Positions 95 through 25,145 of a stretch of DNA of 25,842 bases are shown piece after piece. The first letter of the stretch is position 1, and each line of letters opens with the position of its first letter. This DNA is from an uncultured bacterium (lineage in GTDB: Bacteria; Schekmanbacteria; GWA2-38-11; J061): assembly GCA_964549305.1 (NCBI GenBank), contig CAZJVM010000037.1, forward strand, positions 1 to 25,842, given 5' to 3'. The notes beneath the pieces are model-generated. The model saw only the letters and a program-made list of their open reading frames with translations, was not told the DNA's origin and did no database searches. Position numbers and translations under genes: made by a program.

Positions 95-391
95 TTATTT
101 TTTGAATTTTACTTCTTCCACCATAGTTATTGCTTTGACTTTCGGAGGACATTCGTTTGCACAGACACCGCATCCCTTGCAAAATCTCAAATCAGCGCCT
201 TTAACCTTTTCGTCCTCGACGATTATGCAGGAGTCGGGACAGCATATCCAGCAGGTAAGGCAATGTATGCACTTATCAAAATCCCATATGGGCCTGTATG
301 TCCTCCATCCTCCTGTTTCATATTCCGCGGCATTGCCCGCTTCCTCAATCAATCCGCCGAGAGGAAGTTCTTCTTTGTTTTTTAAACTCAT
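95..391 (-). CDS. porD: 2-oxoacid:ferredoxin oxidoreductase delta subunit (2x[4Fe-4S])
   Basis: TGGWRTYRP motif plus CIHCLTCWICCP and CKGCGVCANECP; 4-nt overlap with porC. Confidence 0.93.
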   Translation of the reverse strand: MSLKNKEELPLGGLIEEAGNAAEYETGGWRTYRPIWDFDKCIHCLTCWICCPDSCIIVEDEKVKGADLRFCKGCGVCANECPPKVKAITMVEEVKFKK

Positions 392-960
392 ACCCCTTTT
401 ACCTCCGCATAAGCCCTGTCGACTGCTTTTATATTTGCTTCGACTACGCTTGGACCGAATTTTTTACCGAAACTCTTTTCAACTTCCATTTTGACATCTT
501 CAATCTTGATTATGTTTGTAACCTTTGCCACTACACCGAGAATAGGCGTATTGGGAATGGGCCTTCCTATTGTTTCGATGGAAATTTTAGTGGCATCGAC
601 TGTATATACGGTCTCCGATTTAAGGTTAAGTTTCTTTTTAATTTCTGCGGAGCTCATTTCGCTGTTCACTATGTATATTCCGTTTTCGGCAACGCCCTCT
701 GTAACATTGACGCTGTCTATCAGTGTCTGGTCTATGATTATAACTATGCTCGGGTTTGTTACCTGGCAGTGAATCAGAATAGGTTCACCGGAAACCCTGT
801 TGTATGCCTTGAGGGGGGCGCCCATTCTTTCGGGACCGTACTCAGGGAATGCCTGTACAAATTTCCCGCCTGCCGTGGCAGCATCGGCCAGAGCTTTTGC
901 GGCAGTAACCGCGCCTTGTCCCGCCCTTGCGTGCCAGCGTATTTCAATAAATTCGTTCAT
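388..960 (-). CDS. porC: 2-oxoacid:ferredoxin oxidoreductase gamma subunit
   Basis: EIRWHARAGQGAVTA, AFPEYGPERMGAP and GRPIPNT motifs; GGAGG RBS at about 967-971. Confidence 0.95.
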   Translation of the reverse strand: MNEFIEIRWHARAGQGAVTAAKALADAATAGGKFVQAFPEYGPERMGAPLKAYNRVSGEPILIHCQVTNPSIVIIIDQTLIDSVNVTEGVAENGIYIVNSEMSSAEIKKKLNLKSETVYTVDATKISIETIGRPIPNTPILGVVAKVTNIIKIEDVKMEVEKSFGKKFGPSVVEANIKAVDRAYAEVKGV

Positions 961-5594: not shown

Positions 5595-6584
5595 TTATGT
5601 CCAGCGGAGGGCAATTCTAACTGCCTCGATCAAGCTCGATTCATCTGCCACTCCACTGCCCGCAATATCGAAAGCGGTACCGTGGTCAACTGATGTCCTC
5701 AATATGGGAAGCCCGAGAGAAATATTTACTCCGCTTCCGAAACAGTGAAGTTTAAGGGGTCCCATTCCCTGGTCGTGATACATTGCAACGACTGCGTCAA
5801 ATTCACCACGCACCGCTTTTGTAAAAATCGTGTCAGCGCTCAACGGTCCCACTGCTTTGATTCCTCTCTTTAACGCCTCTTCGATTGCGGGCATAATTTC
5901 CTTTTCCTCTTCGCTTCCAAATATTCCCCCGTCTCCGGCGTGAGGATTCAGCGAGCATACGCCTATTACGGGAGATTTTTTCTCATATTTTTTCAGGCTG
6001 TCAGCAATTATCTCAATAGTTCGCAGAAGTTTTTTCTTTTTGATTTGTTTTGAAACATCTTTTAGGGCAAGGTGCGTTGTCGCAAGGGCAACCCTGAGTT
6101 TTCCTCCCTGAAGCATCATTACCACATCGGGACTCGATGTGAGCTCTTTTAAAAGCTCGGTATGCCCCGGATAATGGTGTCCGGCGAGATTGAGTGATTT
6201 CTTGTTGATTGGCGCCGTTACCACTGCCGATGCAGTACCCCCGAGGCATAACCCGACTGCTTTCTTTATGTATCTGTATGCCGCATCGCCGTATTTTTCC
6301 TTCACGACTCCGGCAGTAACGAGTCCTCTCAGACCGTTTTTAATATCTAAAACAAAGAGAGTGCCTTTTGCGGGACTGAATGATGGAATTTCTTTTTCGC
6401 CAATGGGATAAATTTTCGTTCCCGAGTTTATTTTTTTTTCATAAAATTGCAGTACATTGGAATTGCCTATCACCACTGCGGGCAGACAAAGTTTTTTTGC
6501 CGCTTTCAGAATTATTTCGGGTCCCACTCCCGCGGGGTCTCCCATAGTGATTGCCAAAGGTTTTCTAAGTTTTTCCTTTTTCAT
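5595..6584 (-). CDS. pdxA: 4-hydroxythreonine-4-phosphate dehydrogenase
   Basis: ITMGDPAGVGPE, TAPINK, GHTE, LNPHAGD, AMYHDQG and RTSVDHGTAFDIAG motifs. Confidence 0.96.
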   Translation of the reverse strand: MKKEKLRKPLAITMGDPAGVGPEIILKAAKKLCLPAVVIGNSNVLQFYEKKINSGTKIYPIGEKEIPSFSPAKGTLFVLDIKNGLRGLVTAGVVKEKYGDAAYRYIKKAVGLCLGGTASAVVTAPINKKSLNLAGHHYPGHTELLKELTSSPDVVMMLQGGKLRVALATTHLALKDVSKQIKKKKLLRTIEIIADSLKKYEKKSPVIGVCSLNPHAGDGGIFGSEEEKEIMPAIEEALKRGIKAVGPLSADTIFTKAVRGEFDAVVAMYHDQGMGPLKLHCFGSGVNISLGLPILRTSVDHGTAFDIAGSGVADESSLIEAVRIALRWT

Positions 6585-6657
6585 CGCAAACTTTATATTG
6601 TCAATAATTGCTTATTTATCAAAATGTTAAATAATATGTAATAATTGTTGTTATAAT

Positions 6658-6686
6658 TTGCTTATTTTATATATCAATGTTATATT
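6658..6686 (+). promoter_or_regulatory. Putative sigma70 promoter for the GT-C gene
   Basis: TTGCTT (6658-6663), 17-nt spacer ending in TGT, then TATATT (6681-6686), i.e. an extended -10, 43 nt upstream of the ATG at 6730. The region is very AT-rich, so a chance match is possible. Confidence 0.4.
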
Positions 6687-6729
6687 TTTGCACTAAACTT
6701 TAAGTCTTTTACCGCCTTTCAGATTAATT

Positions 6730-8337
6730 ATGTATCACATAAAAGAAAAGAATATTTTTTTTATTATACTCCTATTGTCAATAATACTCCTTATCAATGT
6801 TTCAAGCTACTGGGTTTATACAAACGATGATGCCTATATCACATTCCGTTACTCGAGAAATCTGTCTTCGGGAATTGGACCTGTCTATAATGAAGGAGAA
6901 TATGTCGAAGGTTATACTAATTTTCTCTGGATGATTATTTTTTCGGGCTTTTTATATATCGTCCCTTCTCTTGACATCTCCTTTGCGGGGAAATTCCTTG
7001 GCACTTTTTGCTCGCTTATAACTCTTCTCTTAACTGTGTGTTTAAGCATTGAGATAAGGTCATCGATAGATGATAAAAAGGGTAACGGTGAAGAAGATGA
7101 AGGGTTTAGGGAGTTTTTACCTTTTCTTTCGCTCCTGCTTCTTGCGGCAAATCCCTGTTTCGCAATCAATGCCGTAAGCGGACTTGAAACGGCTTTTTTT
7201 ACAATGCTGGTTACAGCAGGCATATATCTTGACGTAAAACAGATTAAGTATGCGACGACGACCTCCCCGTCATCGATTTTTTTCGCGCTTTCCGCCCTTA
7301 CAAGACCCGAAGGCTTTCTGATTGCCTTTTCCTCATACCTTTTCAAGAATATAAATTTATTTCACGCCGGGAAAAAACAATTCGCAAAATCATTGTTGAA
7401 TGAAAGCATCATATATTCACTCGCATTTATTCCATTCTTCTTATTCAGAGTTTATTTCTACGGTGAAATCTTGCCCAATACATTTTACGCGAAGATTGGC
7501 GGATTCGGATCGGGTTTTTTCTATATCCTGAGATTTTTCAATGAATACGGTTTTTTTGTTTCCCTTGTGCTTCTCCTCATATCCTTCCTTTTTATCAGAA
7601 AATGTTCTTCCGCGTACTATCCCGCAATCGTAATGATTCTCTATTTTTCCGGAATTGTCATGTGGGGTTCGGACTGGATGGAAGGATATCGAATGATTAC
7701 GCCCCTTCTTCCCGTTGTGTTTATTCTCGTGCAGGAGGGAATAATAGGAATAAGCGATTATTTTATGAATGCGAAAAAAGAAGAAGCGAAATCCGGTAGC
7801 ATCCGCCAGGAATGGATTGTCATATCGTTGGTTTTTTTTATTTCACTTTTCAGCATTGCGCAAAGCGTTGAATCGCGCGCAAGAATTTTCACAAGGGCAT
7901 ACGGTTACCAAAAGGGGCACATCAAACTTGCCCGGTGGTTTGAATCAAAGGCGGGAGAAGGGGATACCATAGCATTGATGGATATCGGCATCATAGGATA
8001 TTTAAATCCCGATAAAAAGATACTCGATATCACCGGACTGACCGATGAGCACATTGCAAAATCTAAGGGACGGTTTCTGCACAAGGATTATGACCTGAAA
8101 TATATCTTTGACAAAAATCCGGAATACATTGTGCTGGTTTCAAAAAAACGCCTCGAAGTTTCAAATTCGGGAGTAACTCTCATGCCGCGGGATTTCTGGT
8201 CTTCAATCGAGCAGAAAATTTCCGCAGATGAATATTTCAGAAAAAATTATATTCTCACCGGTATTTTCGAACACAACTATCCTGACAAGGCAGTCGAATA
8301 TTATTTAAATCTCTTCGCGCGAAAAGACCTTTTATAA
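6730..8337 (+). CDS. GT-C fold polytopic membrane glycosyltransferase (AftB-like N-terminal loop)
   Basis: DDAYITFRYSRNL...GPVYNEGEYVEGYTNFLW loop after the first TM helix, SGLET and TRPEG motifs, many hydrophobic segments, and a soluble C-terminal domain with DIGIIGY...DITGLTD. Confidence 0.8.
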   Translation: MYHIKEKNIFFIILLLSIILLINVSSYWVYTNDDAYITFRYSRNLSSGIGPVYNEGEYVEGYTNFLWMIIFSGFLYIVPSLDISFAGKFLGTFCSLITLLLTVCLSIEIRSSIDDKKGNGEEDEGFREFLPFLSLLLLAANPCFAINAVSGLETAFFTMLVTAGIYLDVKQIKYATTTSPSSIFFALSALTRPEGFLIAFSSYLFKNINLFHAGKKQFAKSLLNESIIYSLAFIPFFLFRVYFYGEILPNTFYAKIGGFGSGFFYILRFFNEYGFFVSLVLLLISFLFIRKCSSAYYPAIVMILYFSGIVMWGSDWMEGYRMITPLLPVVFILVQEGIIGISDYFMNAKKEEAKSGSIRQEWIVISLVFFISLFSIAQSVESRARIFTRAYGYQKGHIKLARWFESKAGEGDTIALMDIGIIGYLNPDKKILDITGLTDEHIAKSKGRFLHKDYDLKYIFDKNPEYIVLVSKKRLEVSNSGVTLMPRDFWSSIEQKISADEYFRKNYILTGIFEHNYPDKAVEYYLNLFARKDLL

Positions 8338-8419: not shown

Positions 8420-9211
8420 ATGGTCATTTCTTTAATTACTGATTTTGGAAACTCAGACTACTTTACGGGTGTTATAAAAGGAGTCATTCTTTCAATCTGT
8501 CCCCATGTCCCTATTGTCGACATTACCCACGATATTGAACCCTACAATATTGCTCAGTCAGGATTTGTCCTCTCAAACTCTTATCACTTTTTTCCGCGCG
8601 GGACGGTGCACCTTGCGGTAGTTGACCCGGGAGTGGGGTCGTCAAGAAAAATTCTCATCGTTAAGACTCAAGATTATTTTTTCGTTTTACCGGACAACGG
8701 AATCATAAGCTGGATAGAGAAAAGGGAGAAAAATATTTCGGTATTTGAGTTGGCGCAGACTGACATCTATACGGATTCTCCCAGTGCGACTTTCCATGGA
8801 AGAGACATAATGGCGCCTGTTTCTGCGAAGATTGCATCGGGGACAAAACCGGAAGATTTAGGCAGGATAACAGAAAATTTCGTAAAAACAGAGATTCCTC
8901 TCTCAAGGATAAAGGGAGATAAAATTGAAGGTGCAATAATTTACTGCGACCATTTTGGAAACCTTATAACTAACATCAGGAAAGAGGATTATGAAAAAAT
9001 ATCACAATCAAAGAAGAATTCAAAAATTCTGATAGAGGTTAATAAGATAGACATTAACGGTATATCCTCCTGCTATTCTGACGGTTCCGATTCAAATGTT
9101 AATGCGCTATGGGGAAGTCATGGCAACCTTGAGCTGTTTGTTAAAGAGAAAAATGCAAAAGAAATACACGGAATAAAAACAGGAACTGCAGTTGAAATAA
9201 TTTTCAGATAA
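8420..9211 (+). CDS. SAM hydroxide adenosyltransferase (DUF62; chlorinase/fluorinase superfamily)
   Basis: LITDFG, DITH, VVDPGVGSSR, PDNG, TFHGRD and DHFGN motifs. The Asp-Arg-His triad of the hydrolase branch appears to be present. Confidence 0.92.
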   Translation: MVISLITDFGNSDYFTGVIKGVILSICPHVPIVDITHDIEPYNIAQSGFVLSNSYHFFPRGTVHLAVVDPGVGSSRKILIVKTQDYFFVLPDNGIISWIEKREKNISVFELAQTDIYTDSPSATFHGRDIMAPVSAKIASGTKPEDLGRITENFVKTEIPLSRIKGDKIEGAIIYCDHFGNLITNIRKEDYEKISQSKKNSKILIEVNKIDINGISSCYSDGSDSNVNALWGSHGNLELFVKEKNAKEIHGIKTGTAVEIIFR

Positions 9212-9236
9212 AAAAACCTCCTGCCAATCCGTTTTT

Positions 9237-9363
9237 TGTGAATGTTGGATTTGGATGAGAGACAAGGAAGACAACTGCGAAAAATACCGGAACATACTGT
9301 TTTGTATTTGAGGATTTTCGAGCAGAAGTCTGACGCTGTATATTGCCAAAGACAACATTCACA
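9237..9363. other. 127-nt rod-like inverted-repeat hairpin between convergent genes (candidate structured RNA)
   Basis: TGTGAATGTTG (9237-9247) pairs with CAACATTCACA (9353-9363). Nested stems: TTTGG/CCAAA, AGAC/GTCT, CTGC/GCAG, GAAAA/TTTTC, ATAC/GTAT and GGAACA/TGTTTT. Confidence 0.6.
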
Positions 9364-9366
9364 CAT

Positions 9367-10299
9367 TCAGAAAAAGAATTTTTCAGATAGAGTATACCCC
9401 TGAATATATTGCTCTGCCTTCATCCTTCTCTTGTTTTCAGGCTGAATTTCCAGTAATTCCACGACACCGCTTCCCGTGGTAACTATGAGGCGTTTGTTTT
9501 CAATCCATATGGAACCGGGGTCTTTCTGATAGCTTCGCGCGAGAGTTCTGCATGTCCAAATTTTAAGTCTTTCCTGTTTTTCTTCTGAGAGAAAAGTGTA
9601 TGCGCCGGGCCAGGGATTCATCCCTCTTACAAGAAACTCTATATCTTCGGCTTTTTTATTCCAGTCAATTATACCGTCCTCTTTTTTCAGCATAGGCGCG
9701 AAGGTTACGCGGTTTTCATCCTGCGCCTGAGGAACTATATCGCCTCTTGCCCATTTATCTATCGTTTCTGCAAGAAGGTCGGCGCCTTTTTTCATAAGTT
9801 TGTCAAGAAGACTGAAAGTAGTATCGTCCCTTGCTATCTTCTCTTTTGCCTGAAGAAGAATGTCTCCCGAATCGAGCTCTTTTGCCATCAACTGCGTGGT
9901 TACCCCTGTCTCCTCTTCGCCGTTTATGATTGCCCAGTTAACGGGCGCCGCGCCCCTGTATGCCGGAAGAAGCGATGCGTGAAGGTTGATGCATTTTTTT
10001 GGCGGAAGGTTGAGTATTTTTTCAGGAAGTATTCTTCCGTATGCCACAACTGCGATGAGGTCTGGTGAAAGAGATTCAAGCTCATTTAAGAAAGCGGAGT
10101 CTTTCATTTTTTCCGGTTGCAGAACTTTTATGCCTTTTTCGATTGCATAGGGTTTCAGGGGGGGTGATATTATTTTTCTTCCCCTTCCTGCAGGTCTGTC
10201 GGGTTGGGTAACAACCGCTTTCAGTTCAAAATCTTTTTCGACAAGTTTTTTCAGACAAAGAAGCGCGCCTTCGGTACTTCCCATAAATACTATTTTCAT
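9367..10299 (-). CDS. fmt: Methionyl-tRNA formyltransferase
   Basis: MKIVFMG, VVTQPDRPAGRG, VVAYGRILP, INLHASLLPAYRGAAP and NPWPGAYT motifs; overlaps def. Confidence 0.97.
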   Translation of the reverse strand: MKIVFMGSTEGALLCLKKLVEKDFELKAVVTQPDRPAGRGRKIISPPLKPYAIEKGIKVLQPEKMKDSAFLNELESLSPDLIAVVAYGRILPEKILNLPPKKCINLHASLLPAYRGAAPVNWAIINGEEETGVTTQLMAKELDSGDILLQAKEKIARDDTTFSLLDKLMKKGADLLAETIDKWARGDIVPQAQDENRVTFAPMLKKEDGIIDWNKKAEDIEFLVRGMNPWPGAYTFLSEEKQERLKIWTCRTLARSYQKDPGSIWIENKRLIVTTGSGVVELLEIQPENKRRMKAEQYIQGYTLSEKFFF

Positions 10300-10808
10300 T
10301 TATCCTTCTGCAGCTTTTTGAGCTTCATCCTGATCAGTTCTCTTTTGATTTTGCTTAATCTGTCTATGAAAAGCGTGCCGTTTAGATGGTCGAGCTCATG
10401 CTGAATGACTCTGCTCAACAATCCCGACGCCTCAAATTCTATTTCCTTCTCATCGAGAGTCATTGCCTTAACTAAGATTTTGTCGGGGCGAACGATTTTT
10501 TCCGAAATTTCGGGAACACTGAGACATCCTTCCTCCATAACCGTGTTATTGCCGTCTAAGACCTCTATTACGGGATTTATCAGTTTCAGAATTTCTCTCT
10601 TTTCCTCATCCCTGCCCTTAGTGTCAAGGACAATCAACCTGATATTCTTCCCTATCTGAGGCGCGGCAAGCCCGATTCCCGGAGCATTATACATTGTTTC
10701 AAACATACTGTCTGTAAGCTCCGCAATGGCGCCGTCAATATTCCCGATGCACGATGAATCGGCTCTCAGTATACTCGAAGGATATTTAACTATTTCCATT
10801 ACTGACAT
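10296..10808 (-). CDS. def: Peptide deformylase
   Basis: GIGLAAPQIG, EGCLS and QHELDHLNG motifs. Confidence 0.98.
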   Translation of the reverse strand: MSVMEIVKYPSSILRADSSCIGNIDGAIAELTDSMFETMYNAPGIGLAAPQIGKNIRLIVLDTKGRDEEKREILKLINPVIEVLDGNNTVMEEGCLSVPEISEKIVRPDKILVKAMTLDEKEIEFEASGLLSRVIQHELDHLNGTLFIDRLSKIKRELIRMKLKKLQKDK

Positions 10809-17718: not shown

Positions 17719-18717
17719 CTATTTGTCTTCTCCGAGCGCGTCATAGAAGGCAACCACATCTTTTCTCTTTTCATCCATATATGCCATTGCGGACCTTGGA
17801 TGCATATTCATCTGTCCTGTGAGCATATAGGCAATGTCGTAACCCCATTCCACTTTTTCTCTGAGAGGAATAATATGGTCCTGAAGACACTGAAGCACCG
17901 GGCGGAGCTTGAACTTGGGATTTTTTAGGAATCCGAGTAAAAGTTCCGTCGGACAATTCCCCGCGCCTCTTCCAAGTCCGCCTATTGTGGAATCAAGATA
18001 TGATGCGCCGAGGATGAGGGATTCGATAGTGTTTGCGTAGGCAAGCTGTTGATTGTTGTGTGCGTGAATCCCGATTATCTTTCCTACCTTTTCCGCCGCT
18101 TTAATGTATTTCCTGGTCAATGCCTGAATTTCCTCAGAATAGAGAGAACCGAAACTGTCAACAAGATAGATTATATCCACATCTGTCTGACAGAGTAAGT
18201 CCAGTCCTTCGTCAAGCTCATGCTCGGGCACAACGGAAGTTGCCATCAGATTTACGGTGGTTTCATAGCCCTTTTCGTGGGCATCCTGAATCATCTCCAC
18301 TGCTGCGGGTATCTGATGAATGTATGTGGCAACTCTTATCATATCAAGTACGCTGTCACCTTTGGGCAGTATGTCATTATGATAATCAGTGCGCCCCACA
18401 TCCGCCATCGCGGCAAGTTTCAGCGATGTGGGATTGTCTCCCACAACTCTGCGTATATCCTCTTCAGTGCAGAATTTCCAGGGACCGTATTCTTCGGGAG
18501 AAAATATTTCTTTCGAGCCTTTATAGCCAAGTTCCATATAATCGATTCCCGCCGCAACACAGGCATCATAGACGCCTCTCACAAAGGCATCATCGAAGTG
18601 GGAGTTAGTCATCAAACCGCCGTCCCTTATTGAGCAATCGAGAACTTTAATGTCGGGGCGGTATGTGAGCCACGAACCCTTTTTTTCAGTTTTGCTTTTT
18701 TTATCTTTCTTAGTCAT
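17719..18717 (-). CDS. DRE-TIM metallolyase, 4-hydroxy-2-oxovalerate-aldolase-like catalytic domain protein
   Basis: LDCSIRDGG, VDSFGS, HAHNNQQL and GLGRGAGNCPTE motifs. Start placed at the ATG at 18717 (MTKKDKK), after a GGGAGA RBS; the ORF track gives 18753. Confidence 0.85.
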   Translation of the reverse strand: MTKKDKKSKTEKKGSWLTYRPDIKVLDCSIRDGGLMTNSHFDDAFVRGVYDACVAAGIDYMELGYKGSKEIFSPEEYGPWKFCTEEDIRRVVGDNPTSLKLAAMADVGRTDYHNDILPKGDSVLDMIRVATYIHQIPAAVEMIQDAHEKGYETTVNLMATSVVPEHELDEGLDLLCQTDVDIIYLVDSFGSLYSEEIQALTRKYIKAAEKVGKIIGIHAHNNQQLAYANTIESLILGASYLDSTIGGLGRGAGNCPTELLLGFLKNPKFKLRPVLQCLQDHIIPLREKVEWGYDIAYMLTGQMNMHPRSAMAYMDEKRKDVVAFYDALGEDK

Positions 18718-18966
18718 TTTGTCATATCTCCCGTAAAAATTACCCTGCTTCATCTAATCATCAGTGAGGATGCAAAAACAAAATTCCCTCACAAATTCAA
18801 TATTCATACTGCAGTGATTGCCTGCATAACATAATTTGCAGCAAAATCAATTTAAAATATCTCGAAATTCACTTTTTATCACTATCTTGTGATATAGCCA
18901 CAAATTTCAGGAAGTCCAAAAACGTTATTTTCCGGTAATTAAAAAAAGACGAAGAATCGGGAGGCC

Positions 18967-20283
18967 TTATTTCATAACTTCATCAAGACTTGCCTTGCCG
19001 TAATAATTAAGGAGTTTTTCTGCCACTGCGGGCCGTTCTTTCTTAATCCTGTCAATTTTTGACATAAGGGCTTTTTTCATTACTTCAGGCGCCGAATTCT
19101 CGCTTACATATCCTTCATAGACTTCGTTATCCGTAAGGGAGAAGAGGTAATCGAGCTCATCGGTGTCGAGAATTCCTATGGCATATCCCTTGAGCGCTTT
19201 TTCTATTTCACCGGGCCAGCAGTATTCGAAGGTGTCATACCAGAATTTGGAATACTCGTCATAACCGCATCCCGTGGCAAGGTGCTTTGCGACAACCTTT
19301 CCCGCTTTATATCCGTACATCATTGCCCCCTGACAGTATGTTTCTATGAATGATGCCGAATCTCCCACTGCAACGATGTTTCCCTCGACGGGAGGGACAA
19401 GACAGGAATAAAAATTCAATGTTGCCGCGGCAGTGTGCACAACCTCCGCGCCTTCAAACCAGTGGCTGAAAGGGCCTTTTTTCATAAATCTGTCAAGGCG
19501 CCTCTTCGTTGACCCTCCTATTGTGGACGCAAACATAAGGTCAACTACCGGTTCATCTCCGGGCTTTGCATCTTTGAGATACTTGTAAAGAAGGTAAATT
19601 TGTCCTCCGCCCTCCGGGGTGTGCCCCTTGCCTATAAAAGTAATCCACGACGGCTCAAAGGGTATCTTCGTGTTATGGAGAAAATATGATGCTACGTGGA
19701 ATGTAACGAAGTATTTTCTCTTCTTGAAAAGCTCGAGTCCCATTACTATCTGTGAATTCACACCGTCCGCGGCGATTACCGTTTTTGCGCGTATATCCTT
19801 TATACTTCTCGAGCGGCATCCTCTGATTAAAACTCTAACCTCGTTCTTTTTTATGTTTTCCGCGCGAAGGACAAAGGTTTCGGGAAGAACGTCAACGCCC
19901 TTTTTAACGCATTGCGTTAGCAGTCCGTCAAGAAGGACTTCCTTGTTGTATGAGATTGAAACGCCTTCGTCATTTCCGATTACGAGTTTTTTCCCGCCCG
20001 GCGTGATTCTTATGGACTGAGCGTGCTTTGCCCACATCCCCTTATATTCCACTTCAAGACCGAGCTTTTCGTATTGTATGTTGTTGTTGACTATTTTGCA
20101 CGTGTCACCGTGGGTATTGGGCTCGTTTATGAGCATCGTACAGCATGAGCGGTCGATTTTCGGAATATCCCTCTTCATATCTATTACGAGCACGGAGAGG
20201 CCTTCCTCAGCGGCAGTCTTTGCCGCCATAAGTCCCGCAGGTCCCGCGCCTGCAACGATTAAGTCGTATTTGCTTTTAACCAT
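18967..20283 (-). CDS. Geranylgeranyl-reductase/FixC-family FAD-dependent oxidoreductase
   Basis: YDLIVAGAGPAG Rossmann motif, IAADGVNS, VAVGDSA and an N-terminal RSCC motif; directly downstream of a ferredoxin. Confidence 0.85.
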   Translation of the reverse strand: MVKSKYDLIVAGAGPAGLMAAKTAAEEGLSVLVIDMKRDIPKIDRSCCTMLINEPNTHGDTCKIVNNNIQYEKLGLEVEYKGMWAKHAQSIRITPGGKKLVIGNDEGVSISYNKEVLLDGLLTQCVKKGVDVLPETFVLRAENIKKNEVRVLIRGCRSRSIKDIRAKTVIAADGVNSQIVMGLELFKKRKYFVTFHVASYFLHNTKIPFEPSWITFIGKGHTPEGGGQIYLLYKYLKDAKPGDEPVVDLMFASTIGGSTKRRLDRFMKKGPFSHWFEGAEVVHTAAATLNFYSCLVPPVEGNIVAVGDSASFIETYCQGAMMYGYKAGKVVAKHLATGCGYDEYSKFWYDTFEYCWPGEIEKALKGYAIGILDTDELDYLFSLTDNEVYEGYVSENSAPEVMKKALMSKIDRIKKERPAVAEKLLNYYGKASLDEVMK

Positions 20284-20292
20284 TTTCGTCTT

Positions 20293-20565
20293 TTAGTTAT
20301 CCCTTTCGGAGTCGATATCTATCTCCGGTTCGAAGAAATCATCTTCATCGGAAAAAGGGTTGCTTTCAAAATTCATGAGCACCACTTCGGGGAAACGGCA
20401 GTCGCTCGATATTGCATCCACTCCGCATACCGCCCTGCAGGTACCGCATTCAACGCAGGACATCTGGTCGATGTATGACTTATTGTCAATAAAACGTATT
20501 GCAAGCCTCGGGCACTGGTTTACACATCCTCCGCAACCGACGCAAACTCTTCTGTCAACTTTCAT
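20293..20565 (-). CDS. 2x[4Fe-4S] ferredoxin with an acidic C-terminal tail
   Basis: CVGCGGCVNQCP and CVECGTCRAVC motifs; tail SDEDDFFEPEIDIDSERDN. Confidence 0.92.
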   Translation of the reverse strand: MKVDRRVCVGCGGCVNQCPRLAIRFIDNKSYIDQMSCVECGTCRAVCGVDAISSDCRFPEVVLMNFESNPFSDEDDFFEPEIDIDSERDN

Positions 20566-20613
20566 TTTTTTTCTTTAAACCTCTTGATTAGGATGATTTA
20601 TAACTTCAGTTTA

Positions 20614-21375
20614 TTATTCCCTGCACATAAAGCACACTTCGGTGACATCTTCTTTTGCTTTTGTCTTTAACTTTATGAAATCAATAACGGCAGAAGGACC
20701 TATTGCTCTTCCGCACTTTGTGCAGGTTGCCATTTCAAATCCCGCTTTCCAGTTTTCAATGATTCTTGCGGGCCCTGAAATTTTTTCCCTGTCATCGACT
20801 TTACCTTCTTCGCCCTTTTCAATATCGTGTAGTTTTACGGCGCCGGTGGGGCAGATATAAAAACAGGTGCCGCATCCGATACAGGCAGACGATTTTTTAA
20901 AGTATGGTGTGGCAACCTTTTTTCCGTAACCTCTGCCTGCGTAATCTATCGCGCTTACGCCCACGATTTCCCGGCAAGCCCTGATGCAAAGCCCGCAAAG
21001 TATGCAGGCTTCGTTTTTGGCATTGAAGCGCTTGTTTCTTTTCACTCCCACTTCCTTTGCTATTTCCTTCAGGCGCGGTACATCCTTGCCGTCTATGAGG
21101 AGAAGCTCGGCTACGAGTTTTCTTGCCGACTTTACCTTCCCGCTTTCAGTGTCAATGTCAAGCCCTTCTTCCACTCTGTACCTGCATGAGGAAACAAGCC
21201 TTCCCTTGCCTGCGTTTCTTATCTCCACTACGCAGAGACGACATCCTCCGTAGGGCTTTAAAGCGTCGTGGTGGCAAAGCGTGGGTATATGAATCCCTTC
21301 GCGCCTTGCGCACTGAAGGATTGTTTCGCCTTCTTTCGCCTCAACATCTTTTCCGTTTATTCTTATCTTTGCCAT
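20614..21375 (-). CDS. NuoG/HydA N-terminal-like Fe-S protein (2Fe-2S, 2x4Fe-4S, C-terminal CxxC...CxxC) with no catalytic domain
   Basis: IPTLC...GGCRLCVVE...SSC, CILCGLCIRAC, CIGCGTCFYICP and CTKC...CFMC; only 253 aa. Confidence 0.9.
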   Translation of the reverse strand: MAKIRINGKDVEAKEGETILQCARREGIHIPTLCHHDALKPYGGCRLCVVEIRNAGKGRLVSSCRYRVEEGLDIDTESGKVKSARKLVAELLLIDGKDVPRLKEIAKEVGVKRNKRFNAKNEACILCGLCIRACREIVGVSAIDYAGRGYGKKVATPYFKKSSACIGCGTCFYICPTGAVKLHDIEKGEEGKVDDREKISGPARIIENWKAGFEMATCTKCGRAIGPSAVIDFIKLKTKAKEDVTEVCFMCRE

Positions 21376-21379
21376 ATCA

Positions 21380-23284
21380 TTAATTTATAATTACCGCGTC
21401 TGCCGGGCACACATCCTTGCAGGCGCGGCATTTAATGCATTTTTCCTGAATAATTCCATATTTCAATCCCATTGCGCCTTTTACTGCGTCTGCCGGGCAT
21501 GCCTTTTTACACTTGCTGCAGCTTATGCATTTTTTCCCGTCAATCGTAAGCTTGATTAAGCTCGGGCATACTCCCGCGGGACACTTCTTTTTCTTTATGT
21601 GCGCTTCGTATTCCTTTTTGAAGTAGCGGATTGTCGAAAGCAGGGGATTCGGAGATGTGGCGCCGAGATTGCAGAATGACCCTTCCTTTACGCTGTTGCC
21701 CATCTCTTCGAGAATATCGAGATCGCCTGCCTTGCCTTTGCCCTTTGTAATATCCTCGACTATCTCCTTCATCTTACGAATTCCCATTCTGCAGGGCACG
21801 CATTTTCCGCAGGATTCCTCCTCCAGAAAACCGAGAAAATATTTTGCCACATCCACCATGCAGGTTTCCTCGCCCATTACCACCATTCCGCCGGAGCCCA
21901 TTATGGAACCGGCATCGTAAAGCGCGTCATAATCAACGGGCAGGTTGAAAAGCTCCGCGGGAATACATCCTCCCGAAGGTCCCCCCGTCTGCACAGCTTT
22001 TGCTTTTCCGCCGTTTTTCACTCCACCGCCTATTTTGTAGATTATATCCTTAAGTTTTGTCCCCATGGGCACTTCCACAAGGCCGACATTTTTCACGTCT
22101 CCCACAAGGGAGAAAACCTTCGTGCCTCTGCACTCCTTTGTCCCGAGCGATGAAAACCATTTTGCACCTTTAAGGATTATCGCGGGAATGTTGGCAAGAG
22201 TTTCCACATTGTTTATCACCGTTGGTTTTCCGAAAAGCCCTTCTACGGCAGGATAGGGAGGCCTTCCCTGCGGTTCGCCCCACGAACCTTCAATGGACTT
22301 TATTAAAGCTGTTTCCTCACCGCACACAAAAGCGCCCGCTCCCTGATATATCTCGATGTTGAAGGAGAATTTCTTTCCCATTACCGAAGTTCCCAAAAGC
22401 CCCGCCTTTTTTGCGTCCTTTATAGCTTTCCCGAGCCGCAGGCAGGCAAGGGGATATTCAGAACGGACATATATATATCCCTTCTTTGCGCCGATGGCAT
22501 AGGCGCCTAAAATCATTCCTTCGATAACCGAGTGGGGGTCGCCTTCGAGAATTGCCCTGTCCATATATGCTCCCGGGTCACCCTCGTCAGCGTTGCAGAT
22601 TATATACTTTGTTCTGCTGTTTACCTGTGACGCTATTCGCCATTTTCTTCCCGTGGGAAAACCCGCTCCTCCTCTTCCGCGAAGTCCCGATTTTTCTATT
22701 TCTTCAGTCACCGTTTCAGCTTTGCCCGACTTCAGGACTTCAAGGAGTGAATAGTAACCGCCCCGCGCGATATATTCTTCTATGCTTTCGGGATTGATGA
22801 TGCCGCAGTTTCTTGTAGCAATCTTGGTTTGACCTGAATGAAATTTAGGCGCTTTCTCTTTCGCGCCTTTTTTACCTTTTCCGGAAATTCTTTTCTTTTC
22901 ACCGGTAAGTATTGACTTTTCTTCAGAGGAAATCATTACCGCTTTCGGCGGCACTTTCTGGGTTTTCAGGGATTCAACAATATTTTTAACATCATCTTCC
23001 GTTACATTTGCAAAGGAGAACTTTCCTTTTTCGGGGATGAAAACTTCTACAAATGGCTCGTTGTGGCACATTCCGATACAACCGGAGTGGGAGAGCGATA
23101 TGTTTTTCTCTTTTTCGATTTTTTCCTTGAAGAAATCGTAGATTGCCGCGGAACCTGAAGCAAGTCCGCATGAGGCAAGACCAACCGTTATTTTTATCTT
23201 TTTGGGATAAAGGGATTCCATCCCCGCTTTTTTATAGCGATCAAGCTCGCGTTTCCCTTTTATTTTGCTTTTTGCAGTCGCCAT
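21380..23284 (-). CDS. NuoF/HydB-like NADH-binding flavoprotein subunit (long form)
   Basis: GLRGRGGAGFPTG, CNADEGDPGAYMDR, GAGAFVCGEETAL, NNVETL, GGPSGGC, SCGKCVPCRMG, HIKKKKCPAGVC, C-terminal 2x[4Fe-4S], and an N-terminal thioredoxin-like Fe-S domain. Confidence 0.95.
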   Translation of the reverse strand: MATAKSKIKGKRELDRYKKAGMESLYPKKIKITVGLASCGLASGSAAIYDFFKEKIEKEKNISLSHSGCIGMCHNEPFVEVFIPEKGKFSFANVTEDDVKNIVESLKTQKVPPKAVMISSEEKSILTGEKKRISGKGKKGAKEKAPKFHSGQTKIATRNCGIINPESIEEYIARGGYYSLLEVLKSGKAETVTEEIEKSGLRGRGGAGFPTGRKWRIASQVNSRTKYIICNADEGDPGAYMDRAILEGDPHSVIEGMILGAYAIGAKKGYIYVRSEYPLACLRLGKAIKDAKKAGLLGTSVMGKKFSFNIEIYQGAGAFVCGEETALIKSIEGSWGEPQGRPPYPAVEGLFGKPTVINNVETLANIPAIILKGAKWFSSLGTKECRGTKVFSLVGDVKNVGLVEVPMGTKLKDIIYKIGGGVKNGGKAKAVQTGGPSGGCIPAELFNLPVDYDALYDAGSIMGSGGMVVMGEETCMVDVAKYFLGFLEEESCGKCVPCRMGIRKMKEIVEDITKGKGKAGDLDILEEMGNSVKEGSFCNLGATSPNPLLSTIRYFKKEYEAHIKKKKCPAGVCPSLIKLTIDGKKCISCSKCKKACPADAVKGAMGLKYGIIQEKCIKCRACKDVCPADAVIIN

Positions 23285-23291
23285 TTCTCTC

Positions 23292-23753
23292 TTATGCTTC
23301 CTTCTCTATCAGTTTTTTTACTCTGTCTGCGGTAAGTTCGCCGTGAATTGTTCCGTTTATGCTTACCACAGGAGCAAGAGAGCAGCATCCAAGGCATCTT
23401 ACCCTTGAAATTGTAAACGTGAGGTCATCTGTGGTGCCTTCATCCTCCAAATCCACTTCACTTGCAAACCTTTTAAGAAGGTTTTCCGAGTTTTTTACAT
23501 AACAGGCAGTGCCCACGCATATATTTATTGCCGTCTTTCCCTTCGGCTCGGTGCTGAATGCCTTGTAAAAGGTCGCAATGGAAAATATGTTTGAAAGAGG
23601 CACATCTATCTTTTCAGATAAAAACTCAAGCCCCTCTTCAGGAAGATAGTTGTATTTTTTCTGAATATCGTGGAGCAGTAATATGAGGTTTTTTTCAGGA
23701 TTCCTGTATTTTTTTATAATTCCATTAATCGTTTTTTGTATATTTTTTTTCAT
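23292..23753 (-). CDS. NuoE/HydC-like 2Fe-2S subunit
   Basis: LHDIQKKYNYLP, ATFYKAFS, ICVGTACYV and CLGCCSLAP motifs. Start moved to the ATG at 23753 (MKKNIQK), 5 nt after the upstream stop. Confidence 0.93.
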   Translation of the reverse strand: MKKNIQKTINGIIKKYRNPEKNLILLLHDIQKKYNYLPEEGLEFLSEKIDVPLSNIFSIATFYKAFSTEPKGKTAINICVGTACYVKNSENLLKRFASEVDLEDEGTTDDLTFTISRVRCLGCCSLAPVVSINGTIHGELTADRVKKLIEKEA

Positions 23754-23758
23754 TGTAC

Positions 23759-24634
23759 TTATTTGCAAAGGTCTTTTAGTTTGTCTGATTCCTTTGTAAG
23801 GCACTGCGTTAGTATTTTTGTGAAATTCTCCGGCACATATCTGTATCTTTTCTGAAAACCGATATATTCTCCCACTCTACCCGAGTCAATCTTAGGGGCA
23901 TCTTCAGAAAATGTTTTTCCCTCATATTCCCACAAGAGATGAAAACCCGATTCCACGGCAAGTATTCCCGCCTTTACCGTATCCGATGCCGAAAACATCC
24001 ATCCCGTAGGGCAGGGGGAGTGCAGATGAATCAGCGATGTCCCCTTTGACGATAGTCCCTTTTTCACTTTTTCCACAAGGTCAAAGGGATAGGATGGCGA
24101 TGCCGATGCCGAATAGGACAGGTTTAGATTGTCCGCCATATGAAATAGATTTCTCGTCTCAAGAGTGAATGAAATCTCTTTTTTTCCCGGAATATCGTGA
24201 TGATAACCGACTCCGAAGGGAAGGGGTCTGAATTGTCCGATTATCTCGTCCATATAGGATTCGTTGTCATAAAGGATGATGAAGAGATTTTTTCCCTTTT
24301 CGAGTATGGATTGAAATGAAACGAGGTTTTCCAGAAATACGGAAAAATCCAGCGCTATTACCGGTTTCCGTTTTTTTCCCTCTTTGTCCCCGCCTGATTT
24401 TAGAAGAAATTCCGCAATGCCCGAAAAGGATGTCTCATTCCAGTTGAAACCGGAAGATACAATCCTGTTTAAATCAGCTGAACTTTCAGGCTGTGAAGGG
24501 TTTGCCTCGGCAATTGCCTTTGCCGCGACGCGCACACCGAGCGCTTTTCCGCATCCCTTGCATGAACGGCGCGCGGAGACAAAGTTTTCTTCCTTTTTTA
24601 AAAGTTTAGGGACAAATACCGAGAATTTTTCCAT
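23759..24634 (-). CDS. PorB-like (2-oxoacid oxidoreductase beta) paralog with a degenerate TPP-binding site
   Basis: RRSCKGCG (cf. HRACxGCG), YDNESYM (cf. YDNEAYMNTG), YSASASPSYPFDLVEKVKK and SPCPTGW. The position of GDGG reads LDFS. Confidence 0.85.
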   Translation of the reverse strand: MEKFSVFVPKLLKKEENFVSARRSCKGCGKALGVRVAAKAIAEANPSQPESSADLNRIVSSGFNWNETSFSGIAEFLLKSGGDKEGKKRKPVIALDFSVFLENLVSFQSILEKGKNLFIILYDNESYMDEIIGQFRPLPFGVGYHHDIPGKKEISFTLETRNLFHMADNLNLSYSASASPSYPFDLVEKVKKGLSSKGTSLIHLHSPCPTGWMFSASDTVKAGILAVESGFHLLWEYEGKTFSEDAPKIDSGRVGEYIGFQKRYRYVPENFTKILTQCLTKESDKLKDLCK

Positions 24635-24654
24635 TTTATCTGTTTAGTTTATAC

Positions 24655-24945
24655 CTACTTAAAAAGAGGATGCCTCGGGACGGATTTTTCCATCTCCATC
24701 GCTATGCATCCCGTGACGCATTGTTTTTGGCATAATGCGCAACCCTTGCATAGGTTTAAATCCGCTTCGAAGTATCCTTCATCTGTTTCCCTGATAGCGC
24801 TGTCCGGGCAGTAAAGATAGCAGACTCCGCATTTTATGCATTTATCCCTGTCAACTTTTGGCGTTTCGAAACGCCAGTCGGAGTTGCTGTTAAAATGCAG
24901 GGCAACTGGAACCTTATCAATTTTATACTTTTGCTTTTTTTTCAA
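24655..24945 (-). CDS. Second PorD-like 2x[4Fe-4S] subunit
   Basis: SDWRFETP, CIKCGVCYLYCPD and CKGCALCQKQC motifs; TTG start with a GAGGGAG RBS at 24954-24960. Confidence 0.88.
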   Translation of the reverse strand: MKKKQKYKIDKVPVALHFNSNSDWRFETPKVDRDKCIKCGVCYLYCPDSAIRETDEGYFEADLNLCKGCALCQKQCVTGCIAMEMEKSVPRHPLFK

Positions 24946-25145
24946 ACCGAGTACTCCCTCGAAAATTAACCGTCTTTTATTATTAGATTTGTTTTATTTC
25001 AAGGAGAAAATGAAAAAAATACAAATACTTTTGTAAAAAAATATTTTTTTCTTGATAAAAATTGTTCTTCTTAATAGTTTTTTTAAATAATCAGTGGTTT
25101 GAGAGTTTTTTTAAAAAGAAGTCAGGAATCAGAAAAGGAGATGTC

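Follow-up and report, generated by a model that had tools for sequence, protein, structure and literature searches.

A conserved seven-gene Bfu-family unit of Por-Bfu descent and its presumed output, a GGR/FixC-superfamily flavoprotein

Introduction

Oxidoreductases of the Bfu family, the HydABC-type flavin/iron-sulfur bifurcating enzymes, are defined by a conserved BfuBC core that requires a third redox partner beyond nicotinamide adenine dinucleotide (NAD) and ferredoxin; in Type 2 members the third site is carried by extra subunits (accessible part of Schut et al., 2022; PMC9304861). The same text names Por-Bfu among the predicted members and assigns it four Por subunits together with a thiamine diphosphate (TPP) site. 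Here we analyze a seven-gene unit on contig CAZJVM010000037.1 of an uncultured bacterium of the Schekmanbacteria lineage; ‘the window’ denotes the whole 25,842-nt stretch. The unit is real and strongly conserved, and we class it as a Bfu family variant that descends from Por-Bfu and whose presumed output is a flavin adenine dinucleotide (FAD) flavoprotein of the geranylgeranyl reductase (GGR)/FixC superfamily.

With Por-Bfu the unit shares the order PorD-(PorA)-PorB-BfuC-BfuB-BfuA and a short BfuA with a four-cysteine end and no helix; the BfuA of Por-Bfu is itself described as having a zinc-finger motif and no helix (accessible part of PMC12318220). It differs from the four Por-Bfu loci that we examined in having neither PorA nor PorC, in a PorB homologue (PorB') without the GDG motif, and in the ferredoxin (Fd) and GGR-superfamily flavoprotein that follow BfuA. 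A flavoprotein of the GGR kind goes unmentioned among the Bfu systems in the accessible part of PMC9304861.

In WorABCSL, a tungsten aldehyde oxidoreductase-Bfu of solved structure (9MQX), WorA docks an iron-sulfur partner through a four-cysteine zinc finger and a terminal helix, and has no A3 cluster (accessible part of PMC12318220). As far as the material on that complex extends, the unit's BfuA agrees with WorA in its cofactor motifs, which comprise a [2Fe-2S] motif, two [4Fe-4S] motifs and a four-cysteine site at the C-terminus, and an extra iron-sulfur subunit of WorABCSL bridges a separate catalytic subunit to BfuA, an arrangement that we propose for the unit as well. The parts differ: a tungstopterin enzyme and the WorS polyferredoxin there, a flavoprotein, PorD'/PorB' and a small Fd here. 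The unit's BfuA also lacks the C-terminal helix that recruits WorS.

FixABCX/EtfABCX (7KOE) resembles the unit in combining a GGR/FixC-superfamily flavoprotein with a small 2x[4Fe-4S] protein, which would form the high-potential output of an NADH-dependent, ferredoxin-reducing enzyme; it does so with EtfAB, whereas the unit has BfuBC (flavin mononucleotide plus clusters) and no ETF genes. Archaeal GGRs (3OZ2, 3ATQ/4OPx), some of which use a free ferredoxin encoded next door, provide the best fold match to the unit's flavoprotein and share its FAD-binding motifs and adjacent ferredoxin gene. They differ from it in sequence (about 20% identity and a family score below cut-off) and in setting, since the unit is bacterial and its flavoprotein gene lies inside a Bfu cluster. 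Finally, in Bcd-EtfAB and in the caffeyl-CoA reductase CarCDE, the energy released when NADH reduces a C=C bond drives the reduction of ferredoxin. We propose the same logic for the unit, although the proteins are unrelated (ETF and acyl-CoA dehydrogenase there, Bfu subunits and a GGR-type flavoprotein here). FngABC, in the accessible part of its description (PMC13689815), is unrelated to the unit.

An initial annotation of the window, made from the sequence, had presented the unit as a candidate for a new redox complex and knew of no described system of this composition. Full-text searches of the open literature, which does not take in subscription journals or closed supplements, likewise found no paper in which a Bfu cluster contains both a TPP-less PorB and a GGR-type flavoprotein. 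What the annotation overlooked is the derivation of the unit from the predicted Por-Bfu cluster.

Seven genes in a fixed order

The unit consists of seven co-directional open reading frames (ORFs) on the minus strand, from position 24945 to 18967 (Table 1), with intergenic gaps of 20, 5, 7, 4, 48 and 9 nt in gene order. These gaps, and the start of the unit at a divergent intergenic region, are exactly as first annotated when checked against the ORF coordinates. Pfam and NCBIfam calls agree with the family labels given at the time, with a qualification for the flavoprotein that is explained below, and a Pfam scan of the seven proteins likewise finds no PorA, PorC, H-cluster, NiFe or pterin (Mo/W) domain. 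No ETF domain occurs in the seven proteins either, the rest of the genome lying outside that search.

Table 1. Features of the seven-gene unit in window coordinates.
Feature	Position	Strand	Description
Presumed promoter region	24946..25061	.	AT-rich divergent intergenic region, 116 nt, 5' of PorD'
PorD'	24655..24945	-	96 aa, TTG start; 2x[4Fe-4S] delta-type subunit of 2-oxoacid:ferredoxin oxidoreductases
PorB'	23759..24634	-	291 aa; beta-subunit homologue without thiamine-diphosphate motif; presumed Fe-S adaptor or scaffold
BfuC (HydC/NuoE-like, [2Fe-2S])	23292..23753	-	153 aa from ATG; PF01257; the ORF list also has a longer GTG frame from 23804
BfuB (HydB/NuoF-like)	21380..23284	-	634 aa; Pfam domains and match to solved Bfu B subunits
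Short BfuA (HydA-N/HoxU-like)	20614..21375	-	253 aa; [2Fe-2S], two [4Fe-4S] motifs, C-terminal CxxC...CxxC
Ferredoxin (Fd)	20293..20565	-	90 aa; 2x[4Fe-4S], Pfam Fer4; presumed dedicated electron donor to the flavoprotein
GGR/FixC-superfamily FAD flavoprotein	18967..20283	-	438 aa; presumed catalytic output

A promoter would be expected in the intergenic region 5' of PorD', beyond which a plus-strand DUF7948 gene points away from the unit. A consensus scan of its minus strand found no sigma-70-like site, a result that carries no weight either way. Terminator scans, uninformative at both places, found none in the 48-nt gap between BfuA and Fd and no clear one after the last gene (3'-end fold z-score of +1.2).

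Other genomes and metagenomes contain 34 loci in which all seven genes share one strand and keep this order, with approximate median gaps of 26, 8, −4, 34, 40 and 8 nt, an arrangement far beyond chance. The flanks vary between loci while the seven genes remain constant; they are inherited as one block. The neighborhood search that the initial annotation had called for thus finds the arrangement conserved across genomes and across two phyla.

Only five species of the window's own phylum are represented in the genome collection. Four of the five genomes, the window's included, carry the PorB' gene (the fifth genome is 70% complete), and the other three carriers have all seven genes in unchanged order, with identities to the window that range from 42–62% (PorB') to 68–90% (flavoprotein). 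The second phylum is probably Thermodesulfobacteriota/Desulfobacterota, to judge from the names on homologues. Here the flavoprotein has a match at E ≤ 1e-90 in 11 of 401 sampled genomes, and the 10 matches with at least 53% identity all lie in the cluster: seven in complete clusters (L039, L042–L047), two in clusters cut by a contig end (L040, L041) and one in L015. In L015, BfuB and the flavoprotein are each split into two frames (5910–7809 and 8986–10333), which may reflect an assembly error or a real frameshift. At six loci with flavoprotein paralogues of 39–45% identity, the other six genes are absent from five.

A metagenome scan with a profile of TPP-less PorB' returned 80 loci, some of them near-duplicates (e.g. 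L107 and L110). Five of these are canonical, with PorA adjacent in 5/5, and 75 are TPP-less, with no PorA near PorB' in any. Downstream of PorB', the series BfuC-BfuB-BfuA-Fd-flavoprotein is complete in 25 of the 75 TPP-less loci and present as a prefix that runs into the contig end in another 45. The remaining five are weighed below, and no other downstream order was found among the 75.

The unit descends from Por-Bfu-type clusters

The canonical PorB proteins nearest to PorB' (30–35% identity), which include one named Dehalococcoidia PorB, are of a kind found in 281 of the 401 sampled second-phylum genomes. Among the best 30 loci of this kind, 29 read PorD-PorA-PorB-BfuC-BfuB and the 30th is cut off. 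Four wider Por-Bfu loci have the order PorC-PorD-PorA-PorB-BfuC-BfuB(-BfuA), with no Fd or flavoprotein after it. Because the nearest canonical PorB genes sit in Por-Bfu clusters, we derive the unit from these: it is the Por-Bfu order minus PorA and PorC, plus Fd and the GGR-type flavoprotein. Some genomes (e.g. G040) carry both a Por-Bfu cluster and the GGR-type unit.

Two further Bfu arrangements were seen. In the metagenome loci L080 (1–4455) and L082 (1–5216), the seven-gene unit is immediately preceded, on its upstream side, by another Bfu variant, in the order CCG-domain protein (HdrD/GlcF-like), ferredoxin, PorD', a shortened 245-aa PorB-like protein without GDG, and BfuC-BfuB-BfuA. The PorB-like proteins of about 240 aa in this variant form a weakly supported (0.64) sister group of PorB'. 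In L050 (1–7655), a contig that ends inside BfuB, BfuB-BfuA is followed by a ferredoxin, two FAD_binding_4 (VAO/GlcD-type) proteins, another ferredoxin, a flavoprotein paralogue (43%) and an NmrA-like protein. We count L050 in favor of a link between Bfu and flavoprotein, because its BfuB-BfuA is joined to another pair of Fd and GGR paralogue.

PorD' and a PorB homologue without GDG

PorD' scores 74.5 bits on TIGR02179 (PorD_KorD), above the cut-off of 60.05, and its eight cysteines are kept in 39–40 of 40 unique orthologues. Its gene lies directly 5' of PorB' in 66 of the 75 TPP-less metagenome loci; the remaining nine begin at a contig edge. PorB' is more divergent, with no Pfam match at E ≤ 0.01 and 120.5 bits on the NCBIfam PorB model vs. 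a cut-off of 405, while the canonical PorB of the same genome, used as a control, reaches 74.9 bits on PF02775 (TPP_enzyme_C). Aligned with canonical PorB, PorB' has other residues in place of the GDG motif and a deletion that removes the loop bearing the ‘ATGC’ cysteine. The GDG-less PorB noticed in the window proved general, as the motif is missing from 75/75 TPP-less metagenome loci and from 11/11 genome loci examined. C25, C28 and C208 are kept in 66, 66 and 67 of 67 unique orthologues, respectively; with the ligand residues taken to be those of solved PFOR, these are three of the four canonical cluster cysteines, the other one having been held by the deleted loop.

On this evidence PorB' is predicted to be unable to bind thiamine diphosphate while retaining cluster cysteines. 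The proposal that repurposed Por subunits serve as an Fe-S wire or scaffold is consistent with the cysteines kept, three in PorB' and eight in PorD'. We also considered a true PFOR, which is ruled out by the missing TPP motif and the missing PorA; pyruvate chemistry is excluded because PorB' has lost both GDG and the loop with the third cluster cysteine.

The fold of PorB', modeled with a pLDDT of 78, best matches the beta subunit of oxalate oxidoreductase (5exd_F, E = 4.5e-14, TM = 0.65) and also 9bt4_C, and the model thus indicates that the OFOR beta-subunit fold is retained. In a FastTree phylogeny of 159 PorB-like proteins, the operon-linked PorB' sequences form one clade of 29 (support 0.995), none of which has GDG. 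The clade appears small, because only 12 representatives among 1.84 billion representative proteins score at least 253 bits with the PorB' profile before a drop to 213 bits. One homologue, at 62% identity, comes from Candidatus Schekmanbacteria.

A Bfu-type core

BfuC matches PF01257 at 152 bits and has Cys 79, 84, 120, 123 and 124 in 57/57 sequences, as a NuoE-like thioredoxin-fold [2Fe-2S] subunit of a Bfu enzyme does. BfuB has the extra N- and C-terminal domains that mark a Bfu B subunit, Pfam domains running from an N-terminal thioredoxin-like [2Fe-2S]-type domain through the FMN/NADH and NuoF [4Fe-4S] domains to a C-terminal 2x[4Fe-4S] domain. Its residues 39–631 align with NiFe-HydB (7t2r_B, E = 7.6e-202) and also with NfnB, HydB and WorB, whereas NuoF chains cover only about 166–566, and its cysteines are kept in 32–38 of 38 sequences. 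BfuA, HoxU/NuoG-N-like with Fer2_4 and Fer4 domains in Pfam, has WorA as its nearest solved relative (9mqx_A, E = 6.1e-44). Its 16 cysteines (4+4+4+4) occur in 35/35 sequences as a [2Fe-2S] set, two CxxCxxCxxxC motifs and the C-terminal CxxC...CxxC. The protein ends two residues past the last of them, leaving a zinc-finger-like motif without a C-terminal helix. No conserved His motif is present, in agreement with Type 2 enzymes, which have no His-ligated A3 cluster.

We read these features as a Bfu-type core, and the suggestion that the NuoEFG-like genes encode a Bfu-type module is borne out by the BfuB/BfuC/BfuA architecture. Coupling of three substrates (NAD(H), ferredoxin and a third) by the unit is predicted on the same grounds. 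A hydrogenase or formate dehydrogenase Bfu was considered for the unit and rejected for want of such domains. In a BfuB tree that contains only three Por-Bfu sequences and one outgroup, and that we do not use as evidence, the GGR-type sequences and two of the CCG-type variant group beside Por-Bfu.

Ferredoxin and flavoprotein

The ferredoxin gene is always immediately 5' of the flavoprotein gene. Its product has a ninth invariant cysteine (C56), and 32 columns are invariant in a 13-sequence alignment. The flavoprotein was first labeled ‘GGR-family’; the resemblance holds at the level of the superfamily, while family membership does not, the best family, GG-red-SF (TIGR02032), giving 90.6 bits, under the cut-off of 158.8.

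Modeled without FAD at a pLDDT of 93.7, the flavoprotein has GGR of T. acidophilum as its top Foldseek match (3oz2, E = 3e-23). In VIA-align, 3oz2 scores Z = 35.0 (rmsd 3.5 over 376 residues), six units over the next chain, FixC 7koe_C, which at Z = 28.8 over 379 aligned residues stands just about 1 above halogenases, which are unrelated; these and the aromatic hydroxylases reach no more than 27.8. According to the model, then, the flavoprotein has a PHBH-type FAD fold closest to solved GGRs. By sequence, the flavoprotein is only weakly similar to any solved chain, 3oz2 in the PDB included (E = 1.2e-7; by profile 4.3e-14). Two of its residues, R45 and C47, never vary and three more, C48, C317 and C355, hardly do, and the profile alignment to 3oz2 stops at the R45/C47/C48 region. 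GGR structures have a conserved cysteine beside the flavin. We read the protein, from model and sequence together, as a reductase of the GGR/FixC superfamily and not as a GGR proper. C=C reduction is the favored chemistry because the best fold match, GGR, is a C=C reductase.

An Atlas search placed the flavoprotein among generic ‘FAD-dependent oxidoreductase’ clusters only, and a homologue search reported 500 proteins at E ≤ 1e-5 among 8000 candidates scored. In the flavoprotein tree, the 34 unique operon-linked sequences, with at least 51.6% identity, form an exclusive clade.

The fold comparison bears on a distinctly unlikely alternative in which the unit is a Bfu-driven analogue of FixABCX/EtfABCX, the flavoprotein being a FixC-like quinone reductase and NADH oxidation being coupled to the reduction of both ferredoxin and menaquinone. 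Among the structural matches FixC ranks second; the flavoprotein has a small 2x[4Fe-4S] protein at its side, as FixC has FixX; and a quinone pool is likely, because the window's genome encodes MqnA (a menaquinone marker), two complex-I-type NuoH and two UbiA-type proteins, so that a quinone could be the acceptor. Quinones have, moreover, been proposed as Bfu third substrates (accessible part of PMC9304861). T. acidophilum GGR is nevertheless clearly the better structural match, the FixC profile match is significant only over the N-terminal nucleotide-binding stretch, and FixX is not among the 91 PDB matches of the ferredoxin profile. The setting in the second phylum, with extra flavoprotein paralogues, PadR regulators and MFS transporters, also looks rather like that of an inducible pathway acting on a substance taken up from outside.

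A proposed electron path

The balance of the sequence evidence tips modestly towards one Bfu-type complex in which NADH would reduce ferredoxin and, via PorD', PorB' and Fd, the flavoprotein's substrate, probably at a C=C bond. That all seven proteins belong to one complex, and the order of the wire, its direction and its chemistry, we infer as follows. The seven genes would encode one soluble multi-subunit Bfu-family oxidoreductase, with BfuB and BfuC as the NADH- and ferredoxin-reactive bifurcating core. The short BfuA would carry electrons out, releasing them at its outer [4Fe-4S] cluster as in WorABCSL. PorD', with two [4Fe-4S] clusters, and PorB', with one three-cysteine cluster site and no TPP, would be the remains of the PFOR module of a Por-Bfu ancestor; their sole remaining role would be that of an iron-sulfur wire and a scaffold for docking. 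Fd, a small protein with two [4Fe-4S] clusters, would then hand electrons to the FAD of the flavoprotein, the presumed site of the third reaction.

The likely direction would begin with oxidation of NADH at BfuB, from which one path would reduce an external low-potential ferredoxin. The other would run downhill from BfuA through PorD', PorB' and Fd to the flavoprotein, which would hydrogenate a C=C bond or another acceptor of fairly high potential. This third, high-potential half-reaction at the flavin could let NADH reduce ferredoxin too, much as the reduction of crotonyl-CoA or caffeyl-CoA does in ETF systems. The argument for this direction is based on C=C potentials of the crotonyl-CoA/caffeyl-CoA type, set beside those of NADH (−320 mV) and ferredoxin (about −450 to −500 mV; Table 1 of PMC9304861, accessible part). 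Dehydrogenation, which the initial annotation had offered as an alternative to C=C reduction, would be thermodynamically unlikely for a Bfu enzyme.

Several observations weigh against this single-complex reading. The potentials used in the thermodynamic argument are not those of this enzyme, and the score of the flavoprotein falls below its best family's cut-off. PorB' is the least conserved subunit, with a median of 33% identity to the window against 47–72% for the other six (55% each for the flavoprotein and BfuB). A fourth cysteine column is present in 61 of the 67 PorB' orthologues, and the window's own lineage has Leu there (L121), which makes a cluster in the PorB' of this phylum uncertain. 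The widest gap in the unit precedes Fd (48 nt in the window; elsewhere a median of about 40 and up to about 500 nt), so that Fd and the flavoprotein could have their own promoter. Finally, among the 75 TPP-less metagenome loci, four read PorD'-PorB'-Fd-flavoprotein without BfuCBA and one reads PorB'-Fd before its contig ends; given such loci, the flavoprotein module may work without Bfu.

The last two points fit an alternative of two enzymes in one operon, which we regard as unlikely though deserving of weight: BfuABC and PorD'/PorB' would form a self-contained NADH:ferredoxin-type module, for example a remnant whose one activity is electron exchange between NADH and ferredoxins, and Fd and the flavoprotein would be a separate, ferredoxin-dependent reductase that uses the reduced ferredoxin pool. 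Pairs of Fd and GGR paralogue do stand alone beside many loci, and some archaeal GGRs work with a free ferredoxin from a neighboring gene. The Bfu core, however, requires a third partner (accessible part of PMC9304861), and the unit offers no other candidate. BfuCBA sits between PorD'-PorB' and Fd-flavoprotein, and where it is missing, PorD'-PorB' is adjacent to and stays with Fd-flavoprotein, not with Bfu. The second-phylum flavoprotein orthologues (10/10 in the cluster) likewise argue against separate enzymes. The four BfuCBA-less loci are nested, at two places, inside the Bfu-linked flavoprotein clade, and the phylogeny thus suggests that BfuCBA was lost or moved away secondarily and that the four-gene state is not ancestral.

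Own genome and neighboring genes

The window's genome (2.9 Mb, estimated to be 100% complete) bears on a further alternative, in which BfuABC serves a partner encoded elsewhere, of hydrogenase, formate dehydrogenase, Hdr or Bam type, and the Por' and GGR-type genes are unrelated neighbors or a decaying Por-Bfu remnant. The genome contains one weak NiFe-hydrogenase-family match outside the unit, which may be NuoD-like, and a second NuoF-like gene. These are the only hints of such a partner, and we consider this alternative highly improbable: the hydrogenase partner that the initial annotation had named as a potential objection finds no H-cluster gene (PF02906) anywhere in the genome, and the second NuoF-like gene (423 aa) lacks Bfu-type extensions. 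PF01512 has only two matches in the genome, and there is no RnfC-type gene. The gene order kept across two phyla, the intact frames and the conserved cluster cysteines also argue against decay or a chance neighborhood.

The unit has no conserved flanks in the window's phylum. A census of 41 loci with at least 3 kb of flank found flavoprotein paralogues, often with their own small ferredoxin, at 23 loci, PadR regulators at 17, a pair of proteins of about 220 aa with twin-arginine-like leaders at 15, a lipoprotein-like protein (some 610 aa) that belongs to no family at 14, and MFS transporters at 14, one with a PCP_red (protochlorophyllide-reductase-type) domain. PNPOx-family proteins occur at nine, ferrochelatase-family proteins at five and Fe_bilin_red-family proteins at three of the 41. 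The 610-aa protein and the two 220-aa proteins, which have RRxF leaders and conserved cysteines, form a trio without a Pfam family (L045 11068–14436, with equivalents in L042–L047). The likeness of the former to ferrochelatase is weak (Pfam E = 0.098; Atlas clusters 0.80–0.81), and homologues of the trio lie elsewhere in the window's genome (C12, C8).

The same families are expanded in that genome, whose crude ORF set has eight flavoprotein paralogues, about 13 Fe_bilin_red-like ORFs (three confirmed over the Pfam cut-off) and 11 PNPOx-like ORFs. Genes of these three kinds are clustered in places (L057 on C67, 6027–11666; L061 on C28, 5890–11570; L062 on C119, 251–2834). One flavoprotein paralogue adjoins a HemN-like radical SAM gene, and a ferredoxin paralogue (42% identity) adjoins a Fe_bilin_red-like gene. 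We treat these neighbors as leads, not evidence, for a tetrapyrrole/bilin-like or other polyunsaturated substrate. The hint comes from the recurrence beside the unit of flavoprotein paralogues with ferredoxins, PadR, MFS, Fe_bilin_red, ferrochelatase and PNPOx families, and from their expansion in the window's genome. Extended as far as these leads allow, the unit might be the founding member of a new Bfu functional class, in which a PFOR remnant that has no cofactor links an NADH-driven bifurcating core to a family of GGR-like C=C reductases that depend on ferredoxin. Such a hub would drive the hydrogenation, step by step and without oxygen, of a polyunsaturated compound that the cell takes up, perhaps one of the tetrapyrrole/bilin type, while regenerating reduced ferredoxin. 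This full scenario is speculative and, as a whole, quite unlikely.

Other genes of the window were also noted. Downstream of the unit, at a distance of 213 nt, lies an HMGL-like gene of the 4-hydroxy-2-oxovalerate-aldolase type (17719–18753, minus strand); it adjoins the unit elsewhere only in a genome of the same genus (L014, 84% identity), L012 and L013 having no such neighbor. A canonical POR gamma gene (388–960, minus strand; PF01558, 140 bits) and, next after it, an ORF for a 98-aa two-cluster ferredoxin-type protein (95–391, minus strand) lie at the window's left edge, 18 kb away and separate from the unit; together they are probably the start of an ordinary por/vor operon that extends past the window edge. 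A 535-aa ORF on the plus strand (6730–8337) has no Pfam family and weakly matches the NCBIfam beta-arabinofuranosyltransferase (E = 1.2e-10, 40 bits vs. a cut-off of 1050). The window also encodes RecR, YbaB, DnaX, Def, Fmt and PdxA, which identify its source as bacterial.

Discussion

Few Bfu third substrates have been shown experimentally, and the unit would add an output of the flavoprotein C=C-reductase type; many third substrates remain to be found, according to the accessible part of Schut et al. (2022; PMC9304861). The unit would also illustrate how a catalytic module, here PFOR, can lose its cofactor and take on the role of an electron wire. As the ancestral Por-Bfu form persists in the same genomes, this evolutionary step is open to direct study. 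The unit itself is conserved and compact, its seven genes encoding what look like soluble proteins, and it occurs in no fewer than two phyla of anoxic habitats. Knowledge of the substrate would also assign a function to a clade of ‘FAD-dependent oxidoreductases’ that is large but has no name. If the bifurcation reading is true, the unit would represent a previously unrecognized route by which anaerobes pass electrons from NADH to reduced ferredoxin.

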